From: Candidatus Latescibacterota bacterium | GTDB taxonomy: Bacteria; Latescibacterota; UBA2968; UBA8231 | Reading direction: 5' to 3' | NCBI GenBank assembly: GCA_965248355.1 | Contig: OZ252098.1 | Location: 2,912,001-2,976,000, forward strand | Length of the DNA stretch: 64,000 bases | Part shown: piece by piece, positions 6,295-39,471 of the stretch | Layout of the letters: each line of letters begins with the position of its first letter | Position numbering within the stretch: position 1 is the first letter of the stretch | Notes under the pieces: generated by a model | Databases searched by the model: none | Told to the model about the DNA's origin: nothing | What the model saw: the letters and a program-made list of their open reading frames with translations, nothing else | Program-made: the position numbers and the translations under genes

Positions 6295-7037
6295 AGGTCC
6301 TGCTCGTGGGCGGCTCCGGCCACGTGGGCACCATGGTCACGCCCCACCTGCGGCAGGCCCACGAGCTGCGCGTCCTCGACCTGGCGCCGCCGGCCCACGA
6401 CGTCGACTTCGTCGAGGGCTCCATCGCCGATCCCGAGGCCCTGGCCCGGGCCCTGGACGGCATGGACAGCTTCATCACCATGGTGATGAAGGGCGGCCAG
6501 GGGGGCCTCTCCCGCGACCACACACCGCAACTGGTCATCGACAACTACACCGTCAACTGCCTCGGCCTGCACCTGCTGCTGCTGACCGCCCACGGCCTGG
6601 GCATCCACCGCGGCCTCCACACCGGCACCATGAGCCAGCACCACCGCGGCCGGGAATGGTACCCCGGCGAGGACCACGTCCCCCTCGACGGACCCAACGT
6701 CTACGGCCTCACCAAGGGCCTGGCCGAGAGCATCTGCCGCTACTTCGCCCGCGAGTTCCAGATGAACCTGGCCGTCTTCCGCATCACCGGGCCGTCGACG
6801 CGGGAAGACTTCATCGAGCGCCGCAACGCCCCGCCCGTGGCCGGCGTCGTGCCCACCGACGAGGAGGACCTCGCCCGGGCCTACCTGGCCGGCCTCGACT
6901 TCGTGCGCGAGGGCCGCGGCCGCTTCGACGCCTTCTTCATCGCCGGCGACGAGAACCACCGGGAGGTCAACCTCTCCAAGGCCAGGGCCCTGCTCGGCTG
7001 GGAGCCGAGGAGCCACCGGCTGCTGGATTGCCGATGA
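6291..7037 (+). CDS. NAD-dependent epimerase/dehydratase (extended SDR)
   Basis: GTG start overlapping upstream stop; GGSGHVG Rossmann motif, YGLTK. Confidence 0.85.
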   Translation: MKVLLVGGSGHVGTMVTPHLRQAHELRVLDLAPPAHDVDFVEGSIADPEALARALDGMDSFITMVMKGGQGGLSRDHTPQLVIDNYTVNCLGLHLLLLTAHGLGIHRGLHTGTMSQHHRGREWYPGEDHVPLDGPNVYGLTKGLAESICRYFAREFQMNLAVFRITGPSTREDFIERRNAPPVAGVVPTDEEDLARAYLAGLDFVREGRGRFDAFFIAGDENHREVNLSKARALLGWEPRSHRLLDCR

Positions 7038-8140
7038 GTCTTCCCACAGTTGGCCAGCCGGCGCCACCGATCGAGGTGGCTGAATGGATCGCCGGCAGAC
7101 CGGAAGGCGAGGATGTGCTTTCCGGGAGAAATGTGATCCTTGAATTCTGGGGGACCCATTGTGGGCCTTGCATAAGCGCCATCCCTCACCTCAATGAACT
7201 CGCCTCCACCTATGGAGGTCCGGACACCCTGTTCGTCTCGCTGAGCCCGGAGGACTCCCCCACCATAGAGCGCTTCCTGGAGAAGCGGCCCATCAAGGGC
7301 TCGGTCGCTGTCGATCGCGAGCGCGCGACCTTTGACGCCTACCGGATACGCGGCATCCCTCACACCTTCATCATCGACTCCAACGGTCTGCTTCGCTGGC
7401 ACGGCCATCCCAATCTCCTTACGGCGGAACTGCTGGAGACGTTCCTGCGCACGGACCAGGTTCCCGAGGTGGCCGAACCAGCCGCCGCGCCGGAGACCGT
7501 GCCCGCCGAAGCACCGGATGCTCCCTTCTTCCTGCGGATCAACCGGAATGCTTCCGACCGCAGGGAATCGAGTTCAGGTTTCGGCGAGGGGCGATTCGAG
7601 ACCGAGTTACACGGTCGCCGGGTGGTGGAGGTGATCCGCGACCTGCTGGATCACCCCCGCTCCCGGCTCCGGATCGAGGGGCAGGAGCCGGAGGACCTGT
7701 GGGACCTGGAGTTGCGTTCGACCAGCCCCCTGAAGCCGGAGGCCGCCAGGCAGAGAGCCGTGGACGTCCTCTGCGACCTGTGCGGGATCACGATCTCTCG
7801 CGTGCTGGAAGAGCGGGAAGGGTGGAAGCTGACCTGCCGTCGGCCGCGGATGACGGACATGTCGGAACTGGGCGGCGGCATGTCCACGAGCACATCGGAG
7901 ACGGAGTTCACAGGCTCCAACATCACGATCGATCAGCTCGTAAGTGATCTCGAGAGATCGACGGATCGAATCTTCTTCAACGAGACGCGGCTGCAAGGGA
8001 AGTATGATTTCCTACTGCCTCTCGAAGACCTCGAGCAGACACGGCGCGTGCTGGAAGAGGAGTACGGCCTCGGGGTCGAGGCCGAGGTGCGCGAAGTCGA
8101 GATCGTGACTCTCCGCATCACCGGCGAAGCCATCGCCTGA
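7034..8140 (+). CDS. TlpA/redoxin-domain protein fused to a TIGR03435-like domain
   Basis: EFWGTHCGPC, GIPHTFIID; C-terminal NETRLQGKYDF...LEEEYGL pattern. Confidence 0.7.
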   Translation: MSLPTVGQPAPPIEVAEWIAGRPEGEDVLSGRNVILEFWGTHCGPCISAIPHLNELASTYGGPDTLFVSLSPEDSPTIERFLEKRPIKGSVAVDRERATFDAYRIRGIPHTFIIDSNGLLRWHGHPNLLTAELLETFLRTDQVPEVAEPAAAPETVPAEAPDAPFFLRINRNASDRRESSSGFGEGRFETELHGRRVVEVIRDLLDHPRSRLRIEGQEPEDLWDLELRSTSPLKPEAARQRAVDVLCDLCGITISRVLEEREGWKLTCRRPRMTDMSELGGGMSTSTSETEFTGSNITIDQLVSDLERSTDRIFFNETRLQGKYDFLLPLEDLEQTRRVLEEEYGLGVEAEVREVEIVTLRITGEAIA

Positions 8141-9978: not shown

Positions 9979-10884
9979 ATGCGTCCTTACCTCGTTTCCC
10001 TCCTGACCCTCGGACCGATCCTGGGCCTCGCCCCCGGTGCCCACGCCCACATCGGCGACGAGGTCTACCCCTTCTTCGAGCTGCTCGACGAAGACCTGGA
10101 CCGGATCGACCTGAGCGATGGCAGCGTCGAGGACTGGTACGAGGTCGTCGGCGAGCCCTCGTTGACGGCCAGCGACTTCGTCTGGGAGGATCAGTCGTAC
10201 GATCCGTCGGATGTGGACTTCCGAATCTGGCTCGGCTGGCACCAGGGCAGCAGTACGATCTGGATCGCCATGGAGCGCGTCGATGACCTCTACTTCAACC
10301 TCTACGACGGGGACGAACCTTGGGAGATGCAGAACTGGGATTCCAGCCTCCGCTTCATGGTCGACGGCGACCACACAGGTGGGGAATACAGCTACTTTCT
10401 CGGGAGGTATTTCGAAGACTGCACGGCCGAGCAAGTCCTGGAGGACAACCGTCAGGCGCAGGAGTGGATGGCGATCGCCGAGACCCCCAACGGCGAGCAT
10501 CTGTTTCACTTCGGTGCCAGCAAATGGGTGGCGGGGAAGCCGTACGCTGCCGCCGGGGGCGGTGCCATCGGTCAGAGCCCGGTCACCACGGTCACCGAGG
10601 TCAAGGTGACGCCCTTCGACGACCTCATCTACGACGACGAAGACGCCTCCGAGGCCTCGCGATTCTACCCTGGCAAGACCATCGGGTTCGAGATAGTCAC
10701 CTACGACAAGGACGGGCTCGGGCAGAAGAGCCGTCTGTCGCTAACCGGCAGCACGCGTGCACTGAGAAACGCCGATTTCCTCCACGACGGCCTGTTGGTG
10801 GGGGCTGGAGAGCAGCAGGGCCTTGACGACGGCTCCGCCGTGGAGCCGTCCTCCTGGGGAAGGATCAAGGCGGCCCTGGAGTAG
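9979..10884 (+). CDS. Secreted CBM9/DOMON-like protein, paralog 1, with SAVEPSSWGRIK tail
   Basis: Signal peptide AHA|HIGD; VDGDH, E-x-K-V-TPFD, PGKTIGF..DKD pattern; clearly similar to three other genes in the window. Confidence 0.7.
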   Translation: MRPYLVSLLTLGPILGLAPGAHAHIGDEVYPFFELLDEDLDRIDLSDGSVEDWYEVVGEPSLTASDFVWEDQSYDPSDVDFRIWLGWHQGSSTIWIAMERVDDLYFNLYDGDEPWEMQNWDSSLRFMVDGDHTGGEYSYFLGRYFEDCTAEQVLEDNRQAQEWMAIAETPNGEHLFHFGASKWVAGKPYAAAGGGAIGQSPVTTVTEVKVTPFDDLIYDDEDASEASRFYPGKTIGFEIVTYDKDGLGQKSRLSLTGSTRALRNADFLHDGLLVGAGEQQGLDDGSAVEPSSWGRIKAALE

Positions 10885-11361: not shown

Positions 11362-11822
11362 GGACGGTGCATCCGCATCGTGAACGGCTCGATGGCCGCC
11401 ATGACCTCACTCCTCGGCGAGGTGCCGCTGATATTCCACTGATCCTCCGGGTCACCGGGACTGGACAGCGCGGCAAACCGGATCGATCCCGAAGCAAGGA
11501 ATTCCATTGCCATGACGTCGTTGGAGGGAGCCCTCCACTGCGCGGAGAGAAGACCTTCCGCGCCGAGAGAAATCTGTGGGTGAGGAAGCTGCCGTTCGCC
11601 AACGAGAAAGGTGGCAAGGGAACGCAAGGATTCGATTTGCATGGGGGGGTGTTCGGGGTCTTCGTCAACGACCTGCTGGAGGTAGTCCAGGCGAGCAGCG
11701 ATCCTTTCAAGTCCGGATCGCCGGAGGAATGCAACTACCCCCTCGCACGTGTCGTACCGCTCTTGGGTGATCATGGCCTCAATCCCTCGGAGCCCTTCGC
11801 GATTGGTTTCCACCGGGTACAA
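11358..11822 (-). CDS. Hypothetical protein (partner of 10936..11361)
   Basis: 154-aa ORF with protein-like composition, translationally coupled to the downstream ORF; start uncertain. Confidence 0.55.
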   Translation of the reverse strand: MYPVETNREGLRGIEAMITQERYDTCEGVVAFLRRSGLERIAARLDYLQQVVDEDPEHPPMQIESLRSLATFLVGERQLPHPQISLGAEGLLSAQWRAPSNDVMAMEFLASGSIRFAALSSPGDPEDQWNISGTSPRSEVMAAIEPFTMRMHRP

Positions 11823-12011
11823 ACACGGTCGGCCGCCTTGGGGTCAAGAAATCGTCGGGACGACCGCCAGTCTCACCGGGCAATATCCGTGCCGGACTAG
11901 TCCCCCTTGGGGCCTCCCGGCTTGGGGCCTCCCGGCCGCTCCAGCCACGCCTGCACCCCCGATCTTCCCCTATATTCCCGCTTCCCCCAAGCCACGGGAG
12001 CACCTGACCAC

Positions 12012-13577
12012 ATGCATCTGCACTGGTTCGACTTCCTCATCGTGCTCGTCTACGTGGGCGGCACGATCACCGCCGGCCTGCTGGCGCGCTCGGCGATCCG
12101 GGGCATCTCGGACTTCCTCGTCGCCGGCCGCAGCCTGACGACGCACACGGCCGTGGCCACCATGGTCTCCACCGGCCTCGGCCTGGTGACGGTCATGTAT
12201 TTCGCCGAGGAGGGCTTCGTCAACGGCTTCTCGCCCTTCATCCTCGGGGTGATCGCCACCGGCGCCCACATCGTCATCGGCAAGACCGGCTTCCTCGTGA
12301 GCCGGCTGCGCCACCTGCGCATCATGACCGTGCCGGAGATGTACGAGCTGAAGTACTCCCGGGGCGTGCGCCTCCTCGGGGGCTGCATCCTCGGCCTGGC
12401 CGGCACCCTCAACATGAGCCTCTTCCCCATCCTCGGCTCCAAGTTCGTCGTCGGCTTCACCGGCATGCCCGAGAGCTGGACGAACCCGGTGATGATCGCC
12501 TTGCTGGTCATCGTCGTGTTCTACACCCTCATGGGCGGCATGGTCTCGGTGGTGCTCACCGACTTCGCCCAGTTCGTGCTGCTCACCCTCGGCTTCTTCC
12601 TGGGCACCTTCTTCATCCTCAACCACCCCGACCTGGGCTTCGGCACCATCGTCAGCTCGCTGGAAACGCACAAGGGAGCCGCCGCCTTCGACCCCATCGG
12701 CAACCCCTCCTTCGGGTGGACCTTCATCATCTACTTCCTGTGCGTCTCCTTCGTGGGCATCGTCTGGCAGCCGGAGATGTCGCGGCCCCTGTCGGCCGAG
12801 AACGCCCGCGTGGCGCGGCGCATCTTCTGGATCCAGGGGCTGACCTCGGCCGGCCGCGCCCTTGTGCCCATGTTCTGGGGCGCCGCCGCCTTCGCCTGGA
12901 CGCGGCTGCCCTCGTACGCCGGCGCCTACGCCCAGGACGGCCAGTCGGCGGTGCCGGAGATGCTCGGCCAGATCCTGCCCGCCGGGGCCGCGGGGCTGCT
13001 GCTGGCCGGCATGTTCGCCGCCTTCATGTCCACCCACGACTCCTACCTGCTGGCCTGGAGCGGCGTCATCGTGCGCGACGTCATCTCGCCGATCAAGGCG
13101 ATGCGCGCCGGCAGCGACCAGCAGCGCCACGGCGACGACACCTGGGGCGGGCTGAGCAGCCGCGAGGAGATCTACTGGACGCGGGCCATCATCGTCTGCC
13201 TGGCGGTGCTGCTGGCCCTGTTCGGCATCTTCTTCATCGACCGCCTGCCCGAGACGGCGATGAAGTTCATGTACCTCACCGGCACCATCTACTTCGCCGG
13301 CACCGTGGGCACCGTGGTCCTGGGCCTCTACTGGAAGAAGGCCAACCGCGTGGGCGCCTACTGCGCCCTGGTCCTGGGCGCCACCGGGCCCCTCAACTTC
13401 CTGATCATGAGCGTCTTCCCCGAGCTGGTGCCCGAGGCCCTGCGCGGCTTCGTGGAGAACTCGAACCTGACCAACTTCTCGAGCCTGGTCCTCGGCGGCC
13501 TGGGCATGATCGTGGGCTCGCTGCTGACGCAGAAGAAGTACCCGCCCCGCCACATCGACTTCGGCGACATGGAGTAA
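12012..13577 (+). CDS. Sodium:solute symporter family protein
   Basis: DFLVAGRSL, YTLMGGMVSVVLTD, AAFMSTHDS, many TM helices. Confidence 0.92.
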   Translation: MHLHWFDFLIVLVYVGGTITAGLLARSAIRGISDFLVAGRSLTTHTAVATMVSTGLGLVTVMYFAEEGFVNGFSPFILGVIATGAHIVIGKTGFLVSRLRHLRIMTVPEMYELKYSRGVRLLGGCILGLAGTLNMSLFPILGSKFVVGFTGMPESWTNPVMIALLVIVVFYTLMGGMVSVVLTDFAQFVLLTLGFFLGTFFILNHPDLGFGTIVSSLETHKGAAAFDPIGNPSFGWTFIIYFLCVSFVGIVWQPEMSRPLSAENARVARRIFWIQGLTSAGRALVPMFWGAAAFAWTRLPSYAGAYAQDGQSAVPEMLGQILPAGAAGLLLAGMFAAFMSTHDSYLLAWSGVIVRDVISPIKAMRAGSDQQRHGDDTWGGLSSREEIYWTRAIIVCLAVLLALFGIFFIDRLPETAMKFMYLTGTIYFAGTVGTVVLGLYWKKANRVGAYCALVLGATGPLNFLIMSVFPELVPEALRGFVENSNLTNFSSLVLGGLGMIVGSLLTQKKYPPRHIDFGDME

Positions 13578-13582
13578 GGACG

Positions 13583-13735
13583 ATGGAAACCACCACCTGG
13601 ATCGAGATCTGGAGCTACGTCTTCCTGCTGGCCAGCGGCCTGTTCTACGGCACCGTGGCCGTGGTCGCCCTCAAGGGTTTCGGCGACGTGGCGAACATGG
13701 TGAAGGCCATGATCGCCCGGGGGAGGGAGCCGTAA
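13583..13735 (+). CDS. Small single-TM membrane protein (SSS accessory-like)
   Basis: METTTWIEIWSYVF..., RBS (AAGGA) directly after the SSS stop. Confidence 0.65.
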   Translation: METTTWIEIWSYVFLLASGLFYGTVAVVALKGFGDVANMVKAMIARGREP

Positions 13736-13824
13736 GGCCACCCCTCCCGGGGCTTTGCGAAATCGGCGTGGGGGGCCCTCTACCAGTGGCCGTGCCCCCC
13801 TCCCCGAGAACAAGGAGGAGCCCC

Positions 13825-14775
13825 ATGCGCACCTCCCCCATCTTCCTGCTGGCCCTTGCCCCTCTCTTGGGCATCAATAGCGTCACCCACGCCCACATCG
13901 GCGACGAGATCTACCCCTTCTACGAGCTGCTCGACGAGGACCTCGACCTCATCGACCTCACTGACGGCAGCGTCGAGGACTGGCTCGAGGTCGTCGGTGA
14001 ACCCTCGCTGACGGCCGCCGACTTCTACTACCCGTACTCCAGCTACGATCCAACAAACTGTGACAACCGTTTCTGGCTCGGCTGGCACCGGCGCAGCGGT
14101 ACCCTCTGGGTCGCCATGGAGCGCTTCGATGACATCTACTTCAACAACTATGCGGGAAAGATTGTCGAGGGGCTGATTCTCCCTACGATGCATCTCTGGG
14201 ATTCCTACTTCAGCTTCATGGTCGACGGCGACCACTCCGGCGGCCCGTACTGGTTTTCATTCAACAGCTGCGAGGGGTGCACGGTCGAGGAGGCCAAGGT
14301 CCTGAACAACCGCCAGGCCCAGCACTGGATGGCCATCGCCGAGGCGGCGGACGGCCAGCACGTGGGCTATGTCGGCGCCAGCGAGTGGGCCGTGAGGGAG
14401 CCGTACGCCGCGGCCGGAGGCGGCGTCCTCGGCGCCACCCCTGCGACCACGGTCACCGAGATGAAGGTGACCCCCTTCGACGACCTCATCTACAACGACG
14501 AGGCCGCTTCCGTAGCCTCGGAGTTGTATCCCGGCAAGATCATCGGGTTCACCATCCATACGACCGACAACGACGCCACCGAGTACAGTGACGGAATGGG
14601 TCCGTCGCGCCGCCAGCGGCTGTCCGGCGAGGTGCGGACCGGGCACTTCGCCGATTTCTTCGTCGACGGCCTGCTCGTCGGCGCCGGAGAGGATCCATCC
14701 CGCTACGACGACCGTTCCGCCGTGGAGCCGTCCTCCTGGGGGCGGATCAAGGCCGCCCTCCGAGTGGGTCCCTAA
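13825..14775 (+). CDS. Secreted CBM9/DOMON-like protein, paralog 2
   Basis: AGGAGG RBS, signal peptide THA|HIGD, same scaffold and SAVEPSSWGRIKAAL tail. Confidence 0.7.
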   Translation: MRTSPIFLLALAPLLGINSVTHAHIGDEIYPFYELLDEDLDLIDLTDGSVEDWLEVVGEPSLTAADFYYPYSSYDPTNCDNRFWLGWHRRSGTLWVAMERFDDIYFNNYAGKIVEGLILPTMHLWDSYFSFMVDGDHSGGPYWFSFNSCEGCTVEEAKVLNNRQAQHWMAIAEAADGQHVGYVGASEWAVREPYAAAGGGVLGATPATTVTEMKVTPFDDLIYNDEAASVASELYPGKIIGFTIHTTDNDATEYSDGMGPSRRQRLSGEVRTGHFADFFVDGLLVGAGEDPSRYDDRSAVEPSSWGRIKAALRVGP

Positions 14776-14963
14776 GCGGGCAGACGCCGCCAGCTCGACC
14801 TGGGACTCGGTGCCCCGTAGTACCCCGGGACCGTTGGTGAATGCTCGACGCCTGCCTTGAGGACGGCATCCGCCCGGCCCCGCTTGCTCCGGATTATCCC
14901 CGCGCATATACTGCACATATATTCACCGTCCTCCGGCGCCCGCGACAAAGGCAGGCCGCCCCC

Positions 14964-16049
14964 ATGCCCGACCCCATCGCCCCCCAGCCTCCCGGCAAGA
15001 GGGGCCGCGCCGCCGGCTTCAACCCCCCCAACCGCTTCGAGCCCCTGCACCTGGAGCCCGACCCGGCCGAGCCCGGCGAGGAGGGCTTTCAGGAGCGGGT
15101 CCCCACCAGCTACCTGATCGACGCCAGCCGCTCGATCCTGGCCGAGAACGACTCGCCCGACGTCGGCTTCCGCTTCAGCCTGAACCCCTACCGCGGCTGC
15201 GAGCACGGCTGCGTCTACTGCTACGCCCGGCCCAGCCACGAGTACCTGGGGTTCTCGGCGGGGCTCGACTTCGAGACCAAGATCCTGGTCAAGGAGCAGG
15301 CCCCGGAGCTGCTGGAGGCGGCCCTGCGCAAGAGGTCGTGGCAGCCGCAGGTCGTGGCCCTGTCGGGCAACACCGACTGCTACCAGCCGGTGGAGCGGCG
15401 GCTTCAGCTCACGCGGCGGTGCCTGGAGGTGTTCCTCAAGTTCCGCAACCCGGTGAGCCTGATCACCAAGAACCACCTGGTCACGCGCGACCTCGACATC
15501 CTTGAGAGCATGGCGGCCCTCGACCTGGTGCACGTGACCCTGTCGATCACCAGCCTCGACCGCCGGCTCACGGCGGCCATGGAGCCGCGCACGTCGCGGC
15601 CCGAGCGGCGGCTGCAAGCCCTTGAGGAGCTGTCCCGGGCCGGCGTGCCGGCAGGGGTCAACGTGGCGCCCCTGATCCCGGGGCTCAACGATTCGGAGGC
15701 GCCGGCCATCCTGGAGGCGGCGGCGGCGCGGGGGGCGCGCTGGGCCCACTACATCCTGGTGCGCCTGCCCGGGGCCGTGCGGCCCCTGTTCCTGGACTGG
15801 CTGCAGCGCCACTACCCCGACCGGGCGAGCAAGGTCGTGCACCGGCTCGAGGCGGTGCGGGGGGGACAGCTCTCCGACGCCCGCTACGGCAGCCGCATGC
15901 GGGGCGAGGGGGAGCTGGCGGAGCTGGTGAGCCGGTTCTTCGAGATCGCCAAGAGGCGGCACGGGCTGGACCGGGATGGGCACGAGCTGGCCGTGCACCG
16001 GTTCCGGCGCCAGGGGGCGGATCAGCTGGAGCTGTTCGGGGAGGGGTGA
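14964..16049 (+). CDS. PA0069/SplB-like radical SAM protein
   Basis: [19 protein letters not shown] (CxxxCxxC), NTDCYQP, C-terminal QLELF. Confidence 0.9.
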   Translation: MPDPIAPQPPGKRGRAAGFNPPNRFEPLHLEPDPAEPGEEGFQERVPTSYLIDASRSILAENDSPDVGFRFSLNPYRGCEHGCVYCYARPSHEYLGFSAGLDFETKILVKEQAPELLEAALRKRSWQPQVVALSGNTDCYQPVERRLQLTRRCLEVFLKFRNPVSLITKNHLVTRDLDILESMAALDLVHVTLSITSLDRRLTAAMEPRTSRPERRLQALEELSRAGVPAGVNVAPLIPGLNDSEAPAILEAAAARGARWAHYILVRLPGAVRPLFLDWLQRHYPDRASKVVHRLEAVRGGQLSDARYGSRMRGEGELAELVSRFFEIAKRRHGLDRDGHELAVHRFRRQGADQLELFGEG

Positions 16050-16089
16050 GGGCGGCTGCCCGGACTGCCCGGGGCCTCCCGGCGGCCTG

Positions 16090-16632
16090 TTGGCCCTCGC
16101 CCTGGCCGGGGGCCTGGTCGTCGTGGACGGTCCGCCCGGCTCCCTGCTGAACCGGCTGCCGCGGAGCCAGTGGCAGCAACTGCCCCGGGGCACCCCCGCC
16201 CCCGACTTCCAGCTGGCCGCGGTCGCAGGATCCGGACTGGAACTGGCCGACCTGAAGGGCCGGTCCTCGGCAGTCGTGTTCGTCACCACCACCTGCCGCT
16301 ACTGCAACGAGTTGAAGGCCAACCTGCTCGGCGCGGGGCTGCCGGACCTGGATGGGCGCCTGGTCTTCATCAACGGTCCCGACGACGGTCCGTCAGCAGA
16401 GCCGCCCGAGGACAGCGTCGAGGCGCGGATCCGCGACTTGTACCCCGTCCTTCAGGACACCACGGGAGAGACGTCGCTGGCGTACTACGCCGTCAGCGTG
16501 CCCACGGCCTACCGGCTCGACCCGGAGGGCACGGTGGCGGCGGCGGCCCGGGGCGTCGAGCCGGTCCAGGAACTGGTCGAGGAGCTGGCCCAGGCCGTGG
16601 CCTTGGACGAGGACTGCCGGTCGTGTCGCTAG
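16090..16632 (+). CDS. Membrane-anchored TlpA/peroxiredoxin-like thiol-disulfide oxidoreductase
   Basis: APDFQL...LADLKGR, TTTCRYC, VSVPTAYRLD (cis-Pro loop), C-terminal CRSC; start uncertain (in-frame TTG 16090; may be 5'-truncated). Confidence 0.7.
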   Translation: MALALAGGLVVVDGPPGSLLNRLPRSQWQQLPRGTPAPDFQLAAVAGSGLELADLKGRSSAVVFVTTTCRYCNELKANLLGAGLPDLDGRLVFINGPDDGPSAEPPEDSVEARIRDLYPVLQDTTGETSLAYYAVSVPTAYRLDPEGTVAAAARGVEPVQELVEELAQAVALDEDCRSCR

Positions 16633-17675
16633 GCGATCCTGTCCTTTGGGTGGAGCTGGCGATGCTGTCGGCGCTGCTGACGGCCGGCCTCTGTGTCGCC
16701 TACACGGATCTCCGGTTCCAGCGGGTGCCGAACCGCTACACCTTGGGGCTGCTCGGCATCGGCGTGACCGGCCAGGTGGCGATGGTGGGACTGGGCGTGG
16801 GCGGCTGGAACCAGGTCGCAGGGACCCTGCTCCTGGGGCTGGGCGTGGCGCTCCTGATGATGCTGGCGGGGGTCTGGTCGCCGGGCGACGCCAAGATGTA
16901 CTGGGCGGCCGTGGCCGCCCTGCCGCCGAGCCTGTGCCCGGTGGGGAAATGGCTCTCCCTGGAAACGCCTCCGGCCGCTCTCATAGTCAACGCCCTGGTC
17001 GCCTACGTCGCAGTGCTCCTGGCGGTGGTGGCCTGGCGTCAACGGCCGTTGAAGACGGTCAAGGGAAACCGGGGGCCATGGCTGCAGGCCGCCGCCGGGC
17101 TGGGGGGCCTGCTCGGCTTGGCCCTGAGCTTCGCCCAGCTCGTCCTGAACCGGCCCCTGAGCTACCTGGAAGCCTTCGCGTTCCTCGTCGTGGGATACCG
17201 CCTGCTGGAGTGGGGCCTGAAGCCGGATAGGCGTCCGGTGGTGATGATCCCCGGGCTGGCGGCTCTCGCGCTGCTGGCCGTGTCGACCGGCGGCTGGAAG
17301 GACTATCTCCTGATCTGGGCTACGACGTGGCTGCTGGAGCTGGCCTTTCAGCAGGTACGGCACGGGAGCGGGCGGGCCTTCGGGTACGAAGTGCCGATAG
17401 GGCGGCTTCAGCCGGGGGCGATCCTGCGGCACCGGATGATCCTGGCCGGGGACGATGGGGCGGAGGTGATCTGGGAGGGCGGGGAGAGCCTCGATCGGGA
17501 AAGGGTCAACCTGCTGCAAAAGCGGACGGCCTCCGGCGACCTGCCCCGGAGGGTCGAGCTGGCGCGGGCCATGCCCTTCGTCCCCTTCCTCGTGCTTGGC
17601 GGGCTAGCCACCGCCGCCTTCGGCGGCCACTTGGCCCCGCCCTTGAGGGCCTTGCTCGTGTGGCTCAACGGATGA
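16623..17675 (+). CDS. A24 family prepilin/preflagellin peptidase (GxGD-type aspartic protease, FlaK-like long form)
   Basis: YTDLRFQRVPN (Asp1), SPGDAK (Asp2), multiple TM helices, C-terminal AMPFVPFL. Confidence 0.85.
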   Translation: MSLGDPVLWVELAMLSALLTAGLCVAYTDLRFQRVPNRYTLGLLGIGVTGQVAMVGLGVGGWNQVAGTLLLGLGVALLMMLAGVWSPGDAKMYWAAVAALPPSLCPVGKWLSLETPPAALIVNALVAYVAVLLAVVAWRQRPLKTVKGNRGPWLQAAAGLGGLLGLALSFAQLVLNRPLSYLEAFAFLVVGYRLLEWGLKPDRRPVVMIPGLAALALLAVSTGGWKDYLLIWATTWLLELAFQQVRHGSGRAFGYEVPIGRLQPGAILRHRMILAGDDGAEVIWEGGESLDRERVNLLQKRTASGDLPRRVELARAMPFVPFLVLGGLATAAFGGHLAPPLRALLVWLNG

Positions 17676-17780
17676 ATTCGCACCCCCTGCGGCTGAGAGA
17701 GGAGGCATGTGGCGCACAGCAGGATGGAATGGAGGAGTCTCGGAATCAACGCAGTTCATTTCCTTACGGAGGAGTGAGTT

Positions 17781-18086
17781 ATGTTGAAGCGGTTTCGTAA
17801 CCTTGTGGGCGGCTTCATCGCCAGCGAGGACGGCGTCAGGCAGCAGGCGATCCTGCCCGTGGCCTGGGTCGGTGCCGTGATGATGGCTGGGGCCGTCGTG
17901 CTAAACATGCCCGACAAGGCGCAGGCCAGCACCTATTGTTGGGCGGGTGGGTGCCCCAACACGAGCCCCGCTGTCAACTGCAACTATGAGTGTCAGAACA
18001 GCAGCAGCTGCGAGCAGAATTGGGGCACATGCCTCTACTATGGTTCATCGGGGCTCAAGCGCTGCCGGTGTCAGGACCCGTCGTAG
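17781..18086 (+). CDS. Cys-rich defensin-like peptide precursor with Flp-pilin-like leader
   Basis: GGAGGAG RBS; leader ...FIASEDG|V, hydrophobic segment, AQA site, 52-aa core with 8 Cys including CxxxC, GxC, CxC. Confidence 0.75.
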   Translation: MLKRFRNLVGGFIASEDGVRQQAILPVAWVGAVMMAGAVVLNMPDKAQASTYCWAGGCPNTSPAVNCNYECQNSSSCEQNWGTCLYYGSSGLKRCRCQDPS

Positions 18087-20235
18087 TGCACCTTCGTGCT
18101 GATGCGTTGCGCGTCTGACGTGCATCAGCAAGATCCTGGGAGCGGGGGCATGGCCCTCGCTCCCCTCTTCAATGGAGATGAACACCATGCATTTCGCTAT
18201 CTCCTGCCTGCTGGTCTTGCTCGCCACCCGTGTCTTCGCCCACGCCGGCGACGAGATCTACCCCTTCCTCGAGCTGCTCGACGAGGACCTGGACCGCATC
18301 GACCTGACCGACGGCAGCGTCGAGGACTGGCTCGAGGTCCTCGGCGAGCCCTCGCTGACGGCCAGCGACTTCTATTGGGTGAACTATCACTACGATCCCT
18401 CGGAATTGGACTTCCGCATCTGGCTCGCCTGGCACCAGGGCAGCAACACCGTCTGGGTCGCCATGGAGCGCTTCGACGACCTCTACTTCAACCGCTACGA
18501 CGGGGGCAATGTCGCCGATATGTGGCTTTGGGATTCCAACATCGCCTTCTTTGTCGACGGCGACCACACCGCCGGGCAGTACAGCCAATATCACGGGCCC
18601 GACTGCAAGTATTGCACCCCCGAGCGGATTCTTGCCCGCAACCGTCAGGCGCAGCGGTGGTTGGCGATTGCCGAGGCGGCCAATGGCGAGATCCTGGGCT
18701 ACGACGGCTTCAGCGAGTGGGTGGTCCGGGAACCGTACGCCGCCGCGGGCAGCGGCGTCATCGGCCAGAGCCCGGCGATCACGGTCGTCGAGTTCAAGGT
18801 GACGCCCTTCGACGATCTCATCTACGACGACGAGGACGCCTCCGAGGTCTCGCAACTCCGCCCTGGCAAGACCATCGGGTTCACCATGACCACGAACGAC
18901 AACGACGCGACGGAGTACAAGGACGGATTGGGGCCGGCGATCCATCTCTCCCTCGGCCCCGAGGTGCTGAACCTGAGGGTCAACGCCTCTCTCTTCGTCG
19001 ACGGCCTGCTGGTCGGCGCGGGAGAAGACCCCTCCAGCTACGACGACGTTTCCGCCGTGGAGCCGTCCTCCTGGGCGCGCATCAAGGCCGCCCTGAAGTA
19101 GACCGCCCAGGGGGGCCACCGCCCTCCGGCCCCGCCAGCACGCCTGCGCCCCGATCTTCCCCTATATTCCCCGCTTCATCGGGGCTGAAGCGCTGCCGGT
19201 GTCAGTGGCCGTCGTAGTTCATCCTCGGGCGCCCTGATGCGTTGCGCGTCTGACGTGCATCAGCAAGATCTTGGGAGCGGGGGCATGGCCCTCGCTCCCT
19301 CTTCCTTGGAGACGAACATCATGCGTTTCGGTATTTCCTGCCTGTTGGTCTTGCTCGCCACCCGTGTCGTCGCCCACATCGGCGACGAGATCTACCCCTT
19401 CCTCGAGCTCCTCGACGAGGACCTTGCTCGCATCGACCTGACCGATGGCAGCGTCGAGGACTGGTTGGAAGTCATCGGCGAGCCCTCGCTGACGGCCAGC
19501 GACTTCTATTGGCTGAACTATCGCTACGATCCCTCGGAATTGGACTTCCGCATCTGGCTCGCGTGGCACCAGGCCAGCAACACCGTCTGGGTCGCCATGG
19601 AGCGCTTCGACGACCTCTACTTCAACCGCTACGACGGGGGCGGACTCAGCCGGATGCACCTCTGGGATTCCAGCATCGCCTTCCTGGTCGACGGCGACCA
19701 CACCGCCGGGGTGTACGGCGAATGGATCGGGGCCGAGCGCGACTGCGAGACATGCACGCCCGAGCGGGTTCTTTCCCACAACCGTCAGGCGCAGCGGTGG
19801 ATGGCGATTGCCGAGGCGCCCGATGGCGACATCCTGGACTACGACGGCTTCAGCGAGTGGGTGGTCCGGGAACCGTACGCCCTCGCCGGCAGCGGCGTCC
19901 TCGGCCATAGCCCGGCGACCACGGTCGTCGAGTTCATGGTGACGCCCTTCGACGATCTCATCTACGACGACGAGGACGCCTCCGAGGTCTCGCAACTCCA
20001 CCCTGGCAAGACCATCGGGTTCACCATGACCACCAGCGACAACGACGCTACTGGGCACCAGGACGGATTCGGGCCCAAGATACAGCTCACCCTCGGCGCC
20101 GAGGTGCTGAACCTGAGGGTCAACGCCTCTCTCTTCGTCGACGGCCTGTTGGTCGGCGCCGGAGAAGACCCCTCCCGCTACGACGACGTTTCCGCCGTGG
20201 AGCCGTCCTCCTGGGCGCGCATCAAGGCCGCCCTG
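18044..20235 (+). repeat. Tandem duplication (~18044-19095 / ~19175-20235) covering the defensin 3' end, spacer and CBM9-like gene
   Basis: Near-identical intergenic and coding sequence in both copies (e.g. gatgcgttgcgcgtctgacgtgcatcagcaagatc). Confidence 0.85.
18187..19101 (+). CDS. Secreted CBM9/DOMON-like protein, paralog 3
   Basis: Signal peptide VFA|HAGD; tail SAVEPSSWARIKAALK. Confidence 0.7.
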   Translation: MHFAISCLLVLLATRVFAHAGDEIYPFLELLDEDLDRIDLTDGSVEDWLEVLGEPSLTASDFYWVNYHYDPSELDFRIWLAWHQGSNTVWVAMERFDDLYFNRYDGGNVADMWLWDSNIAFFVDGDHTAGQYSQYHGPDCKYCTPERILARNRQAQRWLAIAEAANGEILGYDGFSEWVVREPYAAAGSGVIGQSPAITVVEFKVTPFDDLIYDDEDASEVSQLRPGKTIGFTMTTNDNDATEYKDGLGPAIHLSLGPEVLNLRVNASLFVDGLLVGAGEDPSSYDDVSAVEPSSWARIKAALK

Positions 20236-20250
20236 CGGGTGCGTCGCTGA
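19321..20250 (+). CDS. Secreted CBM9/DOMON-like protein, paralog 4
   Basis: Closest to paralog 3; tail SAVEPSSWARIKAALRVRR. Confidence 0.7.
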   Translation: MRFGISCLLVLLATRVVAHIGDEIYPFLELLDEDLARIDLTDGSVEDWLEVIGEPSLTASDFYWLNYRYDPSELDFRIWLAWHQASNTVWVAMERFDDLYFNRYDGGGLSRMHLWDSSIAFLVDGDHTAGVYGEWIGAERDCETCTPERVLSHNRQAQRWMAIAEAPDGDILDYDGFSEWVVREPYALAGSGVLGHSPATTVVEFMVTPFDDLIYDDEDASEVSQLHPGKTIGFTMTTSDNDATGHQDGFGPKIQLTLGAEVLNLRVNASLFVDGLLVGAGEDPSRYDDVSAVEPSSWARIKAALRVRR

Positions 20251-20257
20251 GCGGTGC

Positions 20258-20495
20258 AACCGCTTCGAGCCCCTGCACCTGGAGCCCGACCCGGCCGAGC
20301 CCGGCGAGGAGGGCTTTGAGGAGCGGGTCCCCACCAGCTACCTGATCGACGCCGGACGTCGGCTTCCGCTTCAGCCTCAACCCCTACCGCGGCTGCGAGC
20401 ACGGCTGCGTCTACTGCTACGCCCGGCCCGGCCACGAGTACCTCGGGTTCTCGGCGGGGCTCGACTTCGAGACCAGGATCCTGGTCAAGGAGCAG
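20258..20495 (+). pseudogene. Truncated duplicate of the PA0069 radical SAM 5' region
   Basis: Near-identical to ~15030-15299 with a 32-nt deletion between cgcc microhomologies; no start, 3' end missing. Confidence 0.9.
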
Positions 20496-20613
20496 CCGCG
20501 TCTCCCTGGCACACACCGATGTTTCCCGGAGGACCCACCCGACTCCGCGGCGGAGGTCGGGCGGATTCCTGCAAGTCCTTGGCCTCCAGGCCCGTGGAAG
20601 GCACGGGTGGAGC

Positions 20614-20629
20614 TGGCACGGTCTTTGTA
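20614..20629 (+). promoter_or_regulatory. Putative sigma54 (-24/-12) promoter
   Basis: TGGCACG-GTCT-TTGTA versus consensus TGGCACG-N4-TTGCW; ~50 nt upstream of the GT4 start; near-identical copy at 23834. Confidence 0.55.
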
Positions 20630-20676
20630 TCGGGCCTGTGTGCAACGTGGCATCCCTCCAACCCCGTCGATGGGAT

Positions 20677-21912
20677 ATGTCGCAGCCAGGCGTCACCCGC
20701 CCTGTGCCATCCGCGCGTCCTCAGCCGCGCCGGCCGGGTCCCGGTCCCGCAACCGGCCGTGGCCCGGGCCGGGGCATCATCGTGCTCAACGGCAACTTCG
20801 CGCCGGCGTCGGCGGCGGGACCTTTCAAGTACGGAGCCGTGGCCTATGCCCTGAAGGCGGCGGAGGCCCTCGACCGCCAGGGGCTGTTGGCCGGATTCCT
20901 TCTCTACCGGCGCGACGAGCGGTTGCACCGGCCGCGTCTGGAGCCGGTGTCGTTGCTCGGGTATCCCGCCCTCGAGCTCGGCTTTCACTTCGACATGGAT
21001 CGCGAGGTGTTGGCCGCGGCCCTGGAGGACGCCCGCGCGCGCCTGAACCGCGGGTGCCTCTACTACCAGACCAACGTGCTGCTGCCCTTTCACCCGCCGG
21101 GGCGGCCCCTCGTCGTCACCCATCACGCGCCCTTCGTCGACCACGTGGTCGAGGTCATGGGGGACCGCCTGGCCGCGGAGGCCTTCGGGGCCGGGCGCGC
21201 CAAGCTGGAGCACCTGCGGCACAGCCAGCGCATCGGACTGGACTGCCTGGTCCGCAGCCGCGGTTCCGCCGTGGAGATCTCGTCGATCCAGGCCGACTAC
21301 CTGCGGATGCACGGTGTGGAGCCTCGGTTCATCCACAGGATCTACCCACCCCTGGAGTGGCCCGACGGGGTGAACGGCCTCTCGCGGGAGGGTGCGCGTC
21401 TGCGGCGCTTCATCGCCGAGGCCGGCCCCCGGTTGGTCCTGTGCACGGCCTGCTCGCGGCTGGACGCCTTCAAGAACGTCGAACTCCTCGTGCAGGCCGC
21501 GTTGCGGCTGGTGAGGTCGGGTCTCGACCTGCGCGTGCTGATCATCGGGGGCCCCCCTCGGGATGGGGAGCGGCGGCGCCTGGAGAGACTGGTGGACGAG
21601 GGCCTGGCTCACCGTTTCCGCTTTGCCCCCAGGGTCCCGCGCGAAGACCTGGCCCGGGTGCTCGATGACCTGGCCGGCCGCGGCCTCTTCGTCTGTCCTT
21701 CCCGCTACGAGACTTGTGGTCTGACCCCCCTGGAGGCGGCGGCGCGGGGGGTGTGCACGTTGGTGGCGGACACGCCCGACAGGGTCGAGGCCGCGATCGC
21801 TGGTTCCGCCCCGGCACCGGTTCTCGCCCACGGTGGAGGGCCTTGGAGCCGCCGTGCGCCGAGTCGCCGAGCGACGGTCGGACCCTTGTTCGACGATCGG
21901 AGTCCTCGATGA
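20677..21912 (+). CDS. Family 4 glycosyltransferase (probable frameshift near 21794)
   Basis: [25 protein letters not shown] (E-x7-E); more natural-looking C-terminus continues in the 21833 frame. Confidence 0.8.
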
Positions 21913-26608: not shown

Positions 26609-26836
26609 ATGAACAGACTCATCAAGCCCCAGAAGCAGTCTTACACCGGCGAGGACGCCCAGGTCCTTGCTTATTCCGATGCCTGCGAGATAGCATGGCT
26701 CATGAACCTCTGCTCTGGCGGCATAGGCGCCGCAGTCTTGTTGGGCCTCGCCGTGCCGCCGGCCCTGGTCGCGTTCGGCGTGTCGTGCTTCATCATGTAC
26801 GTCATCACCTCGGCGGCGTGCAAGGGCTACATCTGA
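26609..26836 (+). CDS. RiPP/bacteriocin-like precursor peptide 1 (75 aa)
   Basis: GAAGGAG RBS; leader MNRLIKPQKQSYTGEDAQVLAY, 4-Cys hydrophobic core ending KGYI. Confidence 0.88.
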   Translation: MNRLIKPQKQSYTGEDAQVLAYSDACEIAWLMNLCSGGIGAAVLLGLAVPPALVAFGVSCFIMYVITSAACKGYI

Positions 26837-26950
26837 TCCATTCCTCCCCGGCCCTTCTTTCAGTCGTGGACCGTCCTGATGAGCGGGACGAACAACGAAT
26901 GAACAGGGGGCATCTACGTGGGCGCTACATTCACCGGAAGGAGATCCATC

Positions 26951-27166
26951 ATGAACAGACTCAACAAGCCCCGAAAGCAGTCCTACACGGGCGATGACAC
27001 TCAGGTCGTTGCCTACTCCCGTCTCTGCGAGATGACGTGGACGACCGCCTTCTGCACAAGCTCCCTGCCCTTCCTCGGCGGCGTGCATCCCTTCCTGGTC
27101 GCGGTGGGAGTGAGCTGCTCCATCTTCTCCATGGTCTGTTCGGCGGTGAGCAACGGTTACATCTGA
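26951..27166 (+). CDS. RiPP/bacteriocin-like precursor peptide 2 (71 aa)
   Basis: Same RBS/5' block; leader MNRLNKPRKQSYTGDDTQVVAY, core ending NGYI. Confidence 0.88.
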   Translation: MNRLNKPRKQSYTGDDTQVVAYSRLCEMTWTTAFCTSSLPFLGGVHPFLVAVGVSCSIFSMVCSAVSNGYI

Positions 27167-27387
27167 TCCCGTCACGCCGAGACTTGCGGCATAGACGCGA
27201 ACGTCGATAAGACAAACCCCTTAGCGCCCCGTAGATGCCCCCATGATCGAATCGTCTCGTCCCTGCCATGATCCCCATCCATGCCACCGGTTCTTTTGGA
27301 GTCGGGGCCCGTGACGGGGGGACGAACAACGAATTGAACAGGGGGCATCTACGTGGGCGCTACATTCACATCGGAAGGAGATCCATC

Positions 27388-27609
27388 ATGAGCAAACTCA
27401 TCAAGCCGCAGAAGCAGTCCTACACCGGCGAGGACTCCCAGGTCCTTGCCTACTCCCTTGCCTGCGAGATTGCGTGGGCCACCCAGTACTGCGTGGCCTT
27501 GGTAGCGGTTGCTCTCATTTTTGGCGGGCCGGCTGGGGTGGCCGGGGTTGGCATCCTGTGTGTCGTCATCTACGTCGTCTCCACGTCGGCGTGCCACGGT
27601 TACATCTGA
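27388..27609 (+). CDS. RiPP/bacteriocin-like precursor peptide 3 (73 aa)
   Basis: Same RBS/5' block; leader MSKLIKPQKQSYTGEDSQVLAY, core ending HGYI. Confidence 0.88.
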   Translation: MSKLIKPQKQSYTGEDSQVLAYSLACEIAWATQYCVALVAVALIFGGPAGVAGVGILCVVIYVVSTSACHGYI

Positions 27610-27683
27610 CCTTCTCCCGAGAATTGCACCGTGCCTAGTACTCACTGACCAACCAAACCCCTTAGCGCCCCGTAGATGCCCCC

Positions 27684-29348: not shown

Positions 29349-29366
29349 CAGGAGGCTGAGACCGAC

Positions 29367-30134
29367 ATGGAACCGACCGTGGAGCTGGAAGACCTGACCA
29401 AGCGTTACCGGTCCACCGTGGCCGTCCGTTCCCTCTCCCTGAAGGTGGAGCCGGGGGCGATCCTCGGTCTCGTGGGGCCGAACGGCGCCGGCAAGACGAC
29501 GCTGCTGAACATGTTGGCCGGGCTCCTCGAGCCGAGCGAGGGCTCGGTGCGCCTCTTCGGACGCACCTACGCCGAGGCCGGCAACGACATCCGGGCCCTC
29601 ACCGGCGTCATGCGGGACGATCCGGGGCTCTACGAGAGCCTCACCGGATCGGAGCACCTGAGCTTCACCGGCTCGGCGTACGGCCTCGATCCTGCAGAGG
29701 TCGCGGAGCGGTCCCGCGAGGTGCTGGCGTTCATGGACCTGGAGCAGGCCGCCGGCGAGACCGCCGCCACCTACTCGGCGGGCATGAGGAAGAAGCTGGC
29801 CCTGGCCTGCATCCTGCTGCACCGGCCCCGGATGGTCCTCCTCGACGAGCCCTTCGCCGCCCTGGACCCCGAAGCCGCCCTCCGGGTGGAGGAGCTGCTC
29901 CGCCGGCTGTCGGCCGGCGGCGCCACCGTGGTCCTCAGCTCCCACGTCCTCGAGCGCGTCGACCGGCTCTGCTCCGAGCTGGCCTTCATCAACAAGGGAG
30001 AGCTGATCCTGCGGGGCCCGCCCGACGAGCTGCGCGCCCGGGGGGCCGAGGGCAAGAAGGCCGGGAGTCTCGAGGAGCTGTACATGGATCTCGTCGCCCC
30101 GGAAGGGGAGCGGCGGGGGCTCTCGTGGTTGTGA
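29367..30134 (+). CDS. ABC transporter ATP-binding protein
   Basis: GPNGAGKTT, YSAGMRKK, LDEP, SSH. Confidence 0.92.
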   Translation: MEPTVELEDLTKRYRSTVAVRSLSLKVEPGAILGLVGPNGAGKTTLLNMLAGLLEPSEGSVRLFGRTYAEAGNDIRALTGVMRDDPGLYESLTGSEHLSFTGSAYGLDPAEVAERSREVLAFMDLEQAAGETAATYSAGMRKKLALACILLHRPRMVLLDEPFAALDPEAALRVEELLRRLSAGGATVVLSSHVLERVDRLCSELAFINKGELILRGPPDELRARGAEGKKAGSLEELYMDLVAPEGERRGLSWL

Positions 30135-32325: not shown

Positions 32326-32415
32326 AGCGCGAGGGGCGCCTGGGGAGACGCCCGTGCGATCGTTCCCGGAGAGTCCGGGAATGCCCGCCTGAGCCAAACC
32401 AGAAAAGGTCATGTC

Positions 32416-35114: not shown

Positions 35115-35116
35115 AG

Positions 35117-37281: not shown

Positions 37282-37287
37282 GAGGGA

Positions 37288-39208: not shown

Positions 39209-39471
39209 CGAAAGCGGAGATCACCGGCAGGGTCCGGGAGGCCGTGGTGAAGGCCCTTGAGCTGCCCATCGGGCCCGAGGAACTCCCCGAGAGCGAGCCC
39301 CTCTTCGGCGCCGACGGCGAAGTCGATTCGATCCTGTCGATCAAGCTGGTCGTCGAGCTGGAGGAAGCCTTCGGAATCGACGTCGACGATGACGATCTGA
39401 CGGAGGAACTCTTCGGGACGGTCGCGGCCCTGGCGGCGTACGTGGAAACCAAACTGGCTGGCCGGGGGTGA
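39205..39471 (+). CDS. Acyl carrier protein
   Basis: Acidic 88 aa; VDSILSIKLVVELEEAFGIDV with the phosphopantetheine Ser. Confidence 0.88.
   Translation: MTKAEITGRVREAVVKALELPIGPEELPESEPLFGADGEVDSILSIKLVVELEEAFGIDVDDDDLTEELFGTVAALAAYVETKLAGRG

Follow-up and report, generated by a model that had tools for sequence, protein, structure and literature searches.

The window analysed here is a 64-kb stretch of a Candidatus Latescibacterota genome (assembly GCA_965248355.1, contig OZ252098.1, positions 2,912,001 to 2,976,000), and it has a G+C content of 68% and carries a small gene cassette. At the centre of the cassette are three open reading frames (ORFs) occupying 15976-18086 on the + strand, which encode a CxxC thioredoxin-fold protein (Trx2), an A24 leader peptidase and a peptide of 101 amino acids (aa). 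A sequence-only reading of the same DNA had described this operon-like run of CxxC oxidoreductase, A24 peptidase and peptide as a defensin-like system linked to a prepilin peptidase; all three genes do lie on the + strand and the peptide sequence proved exact. The core features of the cassette are:

15976..16632, + strand: Trx2, CxxC thioredoxin-fold protein (AhpC-TSA/Redoxin in Pfam) with active-site CRYC
16623..17675, + strand: divergent A24 (GxGD-type aspartic) leader peptidase, PF01478, with two invariant Asp
17676..17780, + strand: spacer of 105 nt between the A24 gene and the peptide gene, with blocks conserved in 7/7 copies of the cassette
17781..18086, + strand: peptide gene, 101 aa, conserved family, no Pfam family
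17781..17834, + strand: peptide residues 1-18, basic Flp-like n-region ending in S15-E16-D17-G18
17835..17927, + strand: peptide residues 19-49, hydrophobic helix ILPVAWVGAVMMAGAVVL followed by N-M-P44-D-K-A47-Q-A49
17928..18086, + strand: peptide residues 50-101 and stop, core of 52 aa with 8 Cys
18138..18164, + strand: GC-rich hairpin of 12 bp between the peptide stop and the next gene
18172..19101, + strand: CBM9-like secreted protein, 309 aa, directly 3' of the peptide gene

The peptide belongs to an unnamed family of about 40 sequence clusters. Out of 32 candidates from a search of a collection of 5.8 billion proteins, 30 clusters, counting that of the window, passed E <= 1; the representatives of the other 29 scored between E 2e-49 and 2e-10, and the 30 initial clusters carry neither a Pfam domain nor a source name. 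The working alignment consists of 26 of these 30 sequences, having left out P0015 (aberrant N-terminus), P0018 (long N-terminal extension), and P0029 and P0030 (C-terminal halves frameshifted or truncated). In the window, the peptide ORF has a coding-like third-position G+C of 0.82 and is preceded by a ribosome-binding site, GGAGGAG, 6 nt 5' of its ATG.

The n-region of the peptide is basic (K3, R4 and R6, with R20 beyond G18), and in its closing motif E16 is invariant while S15 and G18 are at least 90% conserved across the 26 sequences. Flp-type leaders are short and basic, with Glu at -3 and Gly at -1, and the Flp-pilin-like start ascribed to the peptide was borne out as far as the conserved E(-3)-x-G(-1) is concerned, but not by any match to the Pfam Flp family. 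The absence of Glu or Tyr at +5, also pointed out earlier, was confirmed: where Flp has Glu-Tyr, the position +5 after the proposed G18/V19 cut is Ala23, invariant in all 26 sequences, and Arg in the divergent branch of the family. Hydropathy peaks at residues 23-41, and the segment A47-Q-A49 forms a signal-peptidase-I-like AxA site in a P-x-x-A-x-A context.

A property overlooked in the sequence-only reading is that the leader is better conserved than the mature core. Mean pairwise identity is 0.54 in the n-region (residues 1-18), 0.83 in the helix plus AxA (residues 19-49) and 0.48 in the core (residues 50-101). Sixteen leader positions (E16, A23, L25, P26, A28, W29, V30, A32, V33, M35, A38, V40, L41, P44, A47 and A49) are invariant in the 26 sequences, together with C53, W54, C67, C71, C84, C95 and C97 in the core. 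The synonymous rate (dS), determined on six gene copies, is lower in the leader as well (0.40 against 1.25 in the core between the window and the first copy of locus L003, L003a), and between the two branches of the peptide the leader dS is 2-5 times below that of the core. Gene conversion or recombination could be keeping the leaders uniform while the cores are swapped; alternatively, the nucleotide sequence itself may be constrained. The ratio of nonsynonymous to synonymous rates (dN/dS) of the core lies at 0.24-0.68 in the same six copies, a small sample in which several core dS values are saturated; it gave no sign of positive selection in the core, the sample being too small to conclude.

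The leader appears to be specific to this family. When residues 1-50 alone were used as a phmmer query against 1.84 billion representative proteins (E <= 0.001), ten matches were obtained, eight of which are small Cys-rich members of the peptide family (67-134 aa), which speaks against a general sorting tag carried by diverse proteins; the other two, with 481 and 983 aa, match in numerous short stretches (E 2e-4 and 4e-4). Divergent members read 'ASETGFVRQR.GLPVAW' in the leader. A search from the most divergent one returned 13 proteins, and when both branches were aligned together (16 sequences), E16, A28, W29, P44, A49 and seven cysteines stayed invariant. As a crude proxy for co-location, the longest contig of 11 of the 30 peptide clusters has the same size as that of an A24 cluster; likewise, the divergent peptide P0100 and a 50%-identical A24 homologue, P0069, share their source and contig size (1807), which is a proxy for adjacency and not a proof of it.

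The core follows the pattern C-x4-C-x8-C-x3-C-x5-C-x6-C-x10-C-x-C, within which the frame of defensins can be recognised as C53..C67xxxC71..G82xC84..C95xC97. The cysteine signature C..CxxxC..GxC..CxC noted earlier thus corresponds to six cysteines invariant in 26/26 sequences. Eight cysteines are present in 25 of the 26 cores and nine in the remaining one, CxxxC and CxC occur in all of them, and the Gly two residues before C84 is confined to the window's branch. An AlphaFold2 model built on the 26-sequence alignment (mean predicted local distance difference test, pLDDT, 64.8; leader about 50-62, core about 73-78) places a strand at 52-57, a helix at 68-73 over the CxxxC, and strands at 82-87 (C84) and 92-98 (CxC). 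The predicted beta-alpha-beta-beta arrangement corresponds, with moderate confidence, to the cysteine-stabilised alpha-beta topology. Comparison of the model with known structures, which the sequence-only reading had proposed as a check, gave, by description, only plant defensins, scorpion alpha-toxins or brazzein at Foldseek ranks 1-15, but the best of these matches, the plant defensin Ah-AMP1 (1bk8; template-modelling score 0.48 on the target), has an E of 0.54 and is not significant. Below threshold (E <= 10), Pfam matches to AtDEF-like were seen in 4/26 members (best E 0.019) and to Defensin_like in 4/26 (best E 0.38). On this modelled evidence a defensin-like fold of the core is likely.

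The A24 protein matches PF01478 with E 3e-7 (31.1-31.4 bits, cut-off 26.5). Its gene most probably starts at GTG 16623, giving 350 aa, and not at ATG 16662 (337 aa), the start previously assumed: the homologues have 13 additional N-terminal residues which are encoded in frame in the window, and the orthologue in locus L001 aligns to 16623-17672 with 84% identity over 350 residues. This start overlaps the Trx2 stop by 10 nt, which suggests co-translation. The two Asp of the family lie in 'YTDLRFQRVPN' (Asp29) and, within a G-x-G-D-like motif, 'SPGDAK' (Asp89) in the 350-aa numbering; as D16 and D76 of the 337-aa numbering they are invariant in 30/30 aligned homologues (full-length members chosen out of 59 clusters), as are G75, K78 and a C-terminal P-F-x-P-F motif. 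Both Asp are presumably catalytic. In the hydropathy profile about 8-9 membrane segments can be made out, along with a stretch at about residues 250-310 that is soluble and, at the C-terminus, a 'PFVPF' helix. The whole protein exceeds the Pfam core of roughly 104 positions, which covers residues 18-126. The family is small, with 59 clusters at E <= 1e-5 among 8000 candidates scored, and comprises one branch at 76-90% identity and another at 40-50%, some members of which are assigned to Gemmatimonadota and named CpaA or prepilin peptidase in their sources. The best NCBIfam match of the enzyme, obtained with its C-terminal part, is to the archaeal pilin peptidase model EppA (NF053826; E 1.5e-4, 21 bits, cut-off 450), and a sequence-profile search of the PDB with the family gave no meaningful match.

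Trx2 matches AhpC-TSA/Redoxin in Pfam with E 3e-7 (30.8 bits, cut-off 26) and starts either at ATG 15976, overlapping a radical-SAM gene, or at TTG 16090. Counted from the former, a single hydrophobic segment near the N-terminus spans residues 32-50. In 9/9 aligned thioredoxins of the cassette the CxxC cysteines are invariant. The identification of this protein as TlpA could not be upheld: in NCBIfam no TlpA/ResA match reaches the equivalog level, the best being the ResA model NF002854 with 33 bits against a cut-off of 170, and Trx2 is thus TlpA/ResA-like by architecture alone. A second Cys pair, E-D/E/G-C-R/D-S-C-R/P, was observed at the C-terminus of Trx2 (16606-16632) in 5/5 orthologues and is lacking in the related protein Trx1 described below.

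A scan of GTDB representative genomes yielded, from 22 pattern matches, five loci (L001-L005) in metagenome-assembled genomes labelled Candidatus Latescibacterota or Gemmatimonadaceae. Up to 10 kb were covered on either side of the match, L002 being a 10-kb contig. L003 holds two peptide genes and overlaps L004 on one chromosome, so that seven copies are available with that of the window. In 7/7 copies the peptide gene is immediately preceded by the A24 gene (in the second copy of L003, L003b, only the last 183 residues are retained, as seen by tblastn), in 6/7 the A24 gene is in turn immediately preceded by Trx2 (tblastn), and in 7/7 the peptide gene is immediately followed by a CBM9-like gene, which is broken by a run of N in L002. 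Just upstream, a second CxxC thioredoxin-fold gene (Trx1, 26-28% identical) is found in 5/5 cassettes of the loci. The flanking genes differ: L001 is bordered by cupin/RraA and UxuA genes, L005 by methyltransferase and phosphodiesterase genes, L004 by a Vsr/Dcm/UvrD-nuclease block and the window by radical-SAM and glycosyltransferase genes. The conserved unit is therefore [Trx1]-Trx2-A24-peptide-CBM9-like(n). The three genes first described do form a conserved unit, but the CBM9-like genes and, in the relatives, Trx1 had been missed. The cassette is found only in a few uncultured soil-type bacteria.

Two neighbouring gene groups were considered as further members and rejected. The radical-SAM gene 14841-16049 (PA0069 family) adjoins the cassette in the window, L002 and L003; it is absent from L001 and L005 and present as a fragment in L004. 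The glycosyltransferase/BtrH-like genes downstream are missing in L001 and L005. A distant AhpC-TSA/thioredoxin-fold ORF with a C-terminal DUF3738 at 6656-8140, about 24% identical to Trx1, is probably unrelated to the cassette.

The statement that no Tad or type IV pilus assembly genes lie nearby was extended from the window to the relatives. In Pfam searches of the window and the five loci no T2SSE/TadA, T2SSF/TadB, secretin, TadE, Flp or minor pilin family was detected, the scan having covered ORFs which pass length and codon-composition filters, with short or atypical ORFs only in part; over the flanks covered (up to 10 kb per side) none of the five loci is an ordinary tad locus, the finding that had been named beforehand as one that would refute the earlier reading.

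The cassette is also prone to duplication. Three copies lie within about 14 kb of one chromosome (L003 7612-7890 and 10001-10288; L004 10001-10285), and the middle one has an A24 gene cut to the last 183 residues and no thioredoxin gene, pointing to active duplication and decay. Three cassettes in so short a distance, each with an A24 copy, are not expected of a housekeeping prepilin peptidase. In the window, a tandem duplication projects 18044-19095 onto 19175-20235 (blastn 90% over 1064 nt); it covers the 3' end of the peptide gene, the hairpin and the CBM9-like gene, and has left a peptide remnant of 17 residues. The same remnant occurs in L001 (11337-11378), indicating that the duplication predates the split of these genomes. 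The products of this duplication and the more distant paralogues are:

19164..19217, + strand: 3' remnant of the peptide gene (..SSGLKRCRCQWPS and stop), tblastn 71% over 17 aa
19273..19299, + strand: duplicate copy of the hairpin, from terminator scan and folding
19321..20250, + strand: second CBM9-like paralogue, 83% identical to 18172-19101, likely start ATG 19321 in an ORF open from 19237
13825..14775, + strand: third CBM9-like paralogue, upstream of the radical-SAM gene, regionally linked and not contiguous with the cassette
9979..10884, + strand: fourth CBM9-like paralogue, regionally linked

Regarding expression signals, in 9/9 regions folded the end of the peptide gene, or of what remains of it, is followed by a comparable GC-rich hairpin, and the one at 18138..18164 is likely a partial terminator or an mRNA-stabilising stem-loop. 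Blocks in the spacer 17676-17780, e.g. CCCTGCGGC..AGAGAGGAGG and CGCAGTTCA, recur in 7/7 copies. A structured leader RNA was considered for this spacer and dropped, the covariation term of the consensus RNA fold being about 0; Rfam gave zero matches over 13000-21000. A sigma-70 promoter scan of 15800-20700 returned 0 sites and is uninformative for the host lineage.

The CBM9-like proteins, four paralogues of roughly 300 aa each in the window, have no match in Pfam or NCBIfam, and a sequence-profile search of the PDB with the family gave no meaningful one. Their name derives from the nearest Atlas clusters (0.97-0.94), in which 13-94% of the members carry CBM9_1 and which are commonest in Latescibacterota, Gemmatimonadota and Poribacteria, and from a poor AlphaFold model of 11 sequences (mean pLDDT 53) for which Foldseek ranked the CBM9 entries 7nwo (8.4e-5) and 1i82 (2.8e-4) at the top, with the haem-binding gamma subunit of ethylbenzene dehydrogenase lower in the list. 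In L005 about 9-10 of these genes stand in tandem. Each of the 11 copies in the alignment has a Sec-type signal peptide, carries a His, invariant among them, two positions ahead of G-D/E-E-I/V-Y-P-F and closes with the equally invariant tail DD.SAVEPSSW.RIKAAL (window 19039-19098), after which no transmembrane segment follows. Judging from the sequence, an AxA-type cut (..A-H-A/H-I-G-D-E-I-Y-P-F) would likely put the His at residue 1 of the exported protein. An N-terminal His is the hallmark of copper 'histidine brace' proteins, e.g. lytic polysaccharide monooxygenases, and the link to these is speculative. The tail, which matches none of the NCBIfam sorting-signal models, could be a sorting or docking signal.

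Several known systems share parts of this organisation. With bacterial cis-defensins (AdDLP/xanthusin-type) and actifensins, the peptide has in common that it is a small ribosomal product with a leader; the likeness extends to the C..CxxxC..xC..CxC frame, the predicted alpha-helix/beta-sheet core and, in some classes, a fourth disulfide. There is, in contrast, no significant sequence or fold match between the core and any defensin. The signature is, as had been claimed, rare in bacteria, but the fold itself is not new there: 74 cis-defensin peptides in five classes (I-V) have been listed from Proteobacteria, plus one from Acidobacteria and one from Actinobacteria, and none comes from Gemmatimonadota or Latescibacterota (PMC11561630). 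The screen behind this list, as described there, removed sequences with transmembrane signatures and so could not have found the present family (PMC11561630). Actifensins resemble it in their multi-copy genes and in variable cores behind a conserved leader (PMC6989792). They differ in combining a GA-type leader with ABC transporters, where the cassette has an Flp-like motif plus helix, an A24 peptidase and CxxC proteins, and the words 'thioredoxin' and 'peptidase' are absent from the text of the actifensin paper (PMC6989792).

Compared with Flp/Tad (type IVc) pili and their TadV/CpaA peptidases, the cassette likewise has an A24 peptidase without a methyltransferase domain, encoded beside its presumed substrate, and a short basic leader ending in E-x-G before a hydrophobic helix. 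However, the peptide has neither Glu5 nor Tyr6, carries charged residues straight after the cut, and continues beyond the helix with a Pro-AxA site and a 52-aa domain of 8 Cys; no TadA/B/C, RcpA or TadE/F genes lie near the cassette, and its enzyme is, at about 350 aa, extended by extra helices and a soluble insert. For a use of A24 enzymes outside filaments there is reportedly an archaeal precedent, Szabo and colleagues (2007) being said to have described class III signal peptides on non-pilin proteins (PibD/EppA substrates). The C-terminal part of the cassette A24 weakly resembles EppA; the archaeal systems, unlike the cassette, act on large binding-protein substrates and have no linked disulfide enzymes. 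A further parallel is sublancin with BdbA/BdbB, a disulfide-containing ribosomal peptide which, as in the cassette, is encoded beside its own thioredoxin-fold enzyme or enzymes. In operons of the sublancin type the leader is removed by a C39 or ABC-transporter peptidase, whereas the cassette has an A24 aspartic peptidase, and no ABC exporter lies within it. A review of type IV filaments lists prepilin peptidases only with filament machineries (PMC10191384). A literature search by titles and abstracts, outside subscription journals, found no description of this cassette. What is new is the occurrence of a defensin-like family in new phyla and its unprecedented A24-plus-CxxC (and CBM9-like) context, the parts themselves being known.

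These observations can be brought together, with middling confidence, in the proposal of a self-contained, duplication-prone cassette of Gemmatimonadota/Latescibacterota type which makes a four-disulfide defensin-like peptide through a pilus-independent prepilin route. The interpretation in the sequence-only reading, a class III signal peptidase repurposed to mature a disulfide-rich peptide, is in part supported. The 101-aa precursor would insert into the inner membrane through its single hydrophobic helix with the N-terminus inside and the C-terminus outside, an orientation suggested by the basic n-region (K3, R4, R6, R20), which fits the positive-inside rule. The dedicated A24 peptidase would recognise the conserved helix and S-E-x-G and cut at G18/V19 on the cytoplasmic face; the near-invariance of the helix would then reflect intramembrane recognition by an enzyme which is itself 76-90% conserved. 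In the periplasm the 8-Cys core would fold, its disulfides being set, isomerised or proof-read by the membrane-anchored CxxC protein or proteins. Signal peptidase I may cut the P-x-x-A-x-A site at A47-Q-A49/S50 and free the 52-aa core, or the AxA may stay uncut and leave the core tethered to the membrane. The hairpin 3' of the peptide gene would let its transcript accumulate over those of the downstream genes.

As to function, a core that varies behind an unchanging leader suggests an extracellular ligand that diversifies, such as an inhibitor, a binding module or a weapon of bacteriocin type, and this design, along with the repeated duplication, resembles by analogy that of bacteriocin and toxin gene families. 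The peptide may act together with the CBM9-like secreted proteins which always follow it, and these partners may be its real functional context. A more specific and rather tentative version is that, in a pilus-independent maturation pathway for class III leaders, a private GxGD peptidase and private periplasmic CxxC enzymes process a fast-diversifying defensin-like peptide for which the CBM9-like proteins serve as delivery or target-binding partners.

A number of results weigh against this proposal. Its main weakness is the need for any A24 cut, given that the conserved AxA site makes an ordinary release by Sec and signal peptidase I possible without one. The Flp likeness of the leader is at the level of a short motif only, no pilin or Flp profile matching any of the 26 members at E up to 10 in Pfam or any NCBIfam model, and the charged or polar residues at +2 to +4 with Ala at +5 are unlike known substrates. 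As regards the fold, Foldseek gave 69 matches in the PDB at E <= 10 and 0 at E <= 0.001, none of them significant; a sequence-profile search of the PDB with the peptide gave 0 matches at E <= 10 and an Atlas search with the 52-aa core none usable. The net charge of the core ranges from -6 to +4 in the 26 members, hence the family is not typically cationic and its charge gives no pointer to antimicrobial action. As a rule, proteins of the TlpA/ResA type are reductants and do not make disulfides, and the cassette of the window has no Trx1.

The first of these points leads to the explanation that the peptide is an ordinary secreted Cys-rich protein, with a leader that is merely a long Sec signal cut at AQA/S, while the A24 enzyme serves pilins elsewhere. 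The conserved P-x-x-A-x-A c-region after a single hydrophobic helix and the failure of the peptide to match a Pfam pilin or Flp family fit this, and some sources do call homologues of the enzyme 'CpaA' or 'prepilin peptidase'. Yet the A24 gene adjoins the peptide gene in 7/7 copies and has been duplicated along with it, giving three copies in a 14-kb stretch; the n-region motif and the helix are conserved much above usual Sec signal peptides, and the A24 family is small (59 clusters), confined to the lineages described here and far from standard models (21 bits in NCBIfam against a cut-off of 450). This explanation is considered decidedly unlikely. The class-III-like leader and the dedicated A24 peptidase could also belong to a minor or tip pilin that lacks Glu5 and bears a small disulfide-rich head, its assembly relying on a type IV filament or Tad machine with genes in another part of the genome. 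Tip-located minor pilins can indeed lack Glu5, according to the filament review (PMC10191384). Nevertheless, neither the 64-kb window nor the flanks of the five loci (<=10 kb per side) yielded an ATPase, platform, secretin or TadE/F-type gene, the peptide departs from pilins in its Lys/Arg at +2 and +3 and in the conserved Pro and AxA that immediately follow the helix, and no pilin family is matched, which makes such a role very improbable.

The strongest functional alternative is that the peptide works with the CBM9-like proteins. In its full form, which is judged unlikely, the CBM9-like set is the real product of the cassette, and a tethered peptide, uncut at the AxA, is a putative anchor, receptor, chaperone or redox/metal partner which, e.g., binds the invariant C-terminal tail, the A24 enzyme only trimming its cytoplasmic end. 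The constant position of the CBM9-like genes 3' of the peptide in 7/7 copies and their expansion to about 9-10 in L005 speak for it, together with their invariant tail and likely N-terminal His. So do the helix, conserved far beyond the needs of a cleaved signal peptide, and the near-neutral charge of the core, and two periplasmic thioredoxin-fold proteins would fit the assembly of a redox or metal centre. On the other hand, CBM9-like paralogues are also found away from the cassette (window 9979-10884 and 13825-14775), the hairpin that lies between them and the peptide gene in the cassette hints at expression that is in part independent, and a variable core behind a constant leader is more like toxin or bacteriocin families than a fixed docking module.

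Should the proposal of an A24-processed defensin-like peptide hold, it would be the first case of a bacterial prepilin-peptidase logic recruited for a secreted or surface peptide effector, and processing of the peptide by A24 would show that bacterial prepilin peptidases act not only on filament subunits but also on a secreted or anchored peptide that stands alone. A rule for genome mining would follow, namely to look for a short ORF with an 'SE.G..LPVAW' leader in the company of A24 and CxxC genes. Two poorly known phyla and a four-disulfide scaffold would be added to the bacterial defensin-like peptides, and the family, with its constant leader and variable core, would amount to a natural library of stable disulfide scaffolds. 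The finding would also bear on the debate over a prokaryotic origin of the defensin fold (PMC11561630). The conserved link with CBM9-like proteins, possibly starting with His, is a lead in its own right.

Other features were noted in passing, both in the relatives and elsewhere in the window. Directly after the cassette in L004, a block of lower G+C (0.56-0.61) at 11585-17609 encodes a Vsr endonuclease, a C-5 cytosine methylase, a fusion of UvrD-helicase and PD-(D/E)XK nuclease, and an AAA ATPase; it looks like a restriction or defence island. In the window, three paralogous ORFs of about 72-75 aa occur at 26609-27609 on the + strand, reading 'M(N/S)(R/K)LIKPQKQSYTGED.QV(L/V)AYS..C' with a hydrophobic tail which ends in GYI. 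These small ORFs are followed at 27684-39471 by genes for a large membrane protein, two ABC ATPase/exporter proteins, a subtilase, Yip1, HlyD, two MacB-type permeases, another ABC ATPase and an acyl-carrier protein, and the whole of 26609-39471 looks like a separate precursor-peptide array with export genes. Beyond it, an IS3-type transposase pair at 41691-42855 (HTH_Tnp_1, then an rve integrase core) adjoins a stretch of low G+C (52%) at 39471-41691.

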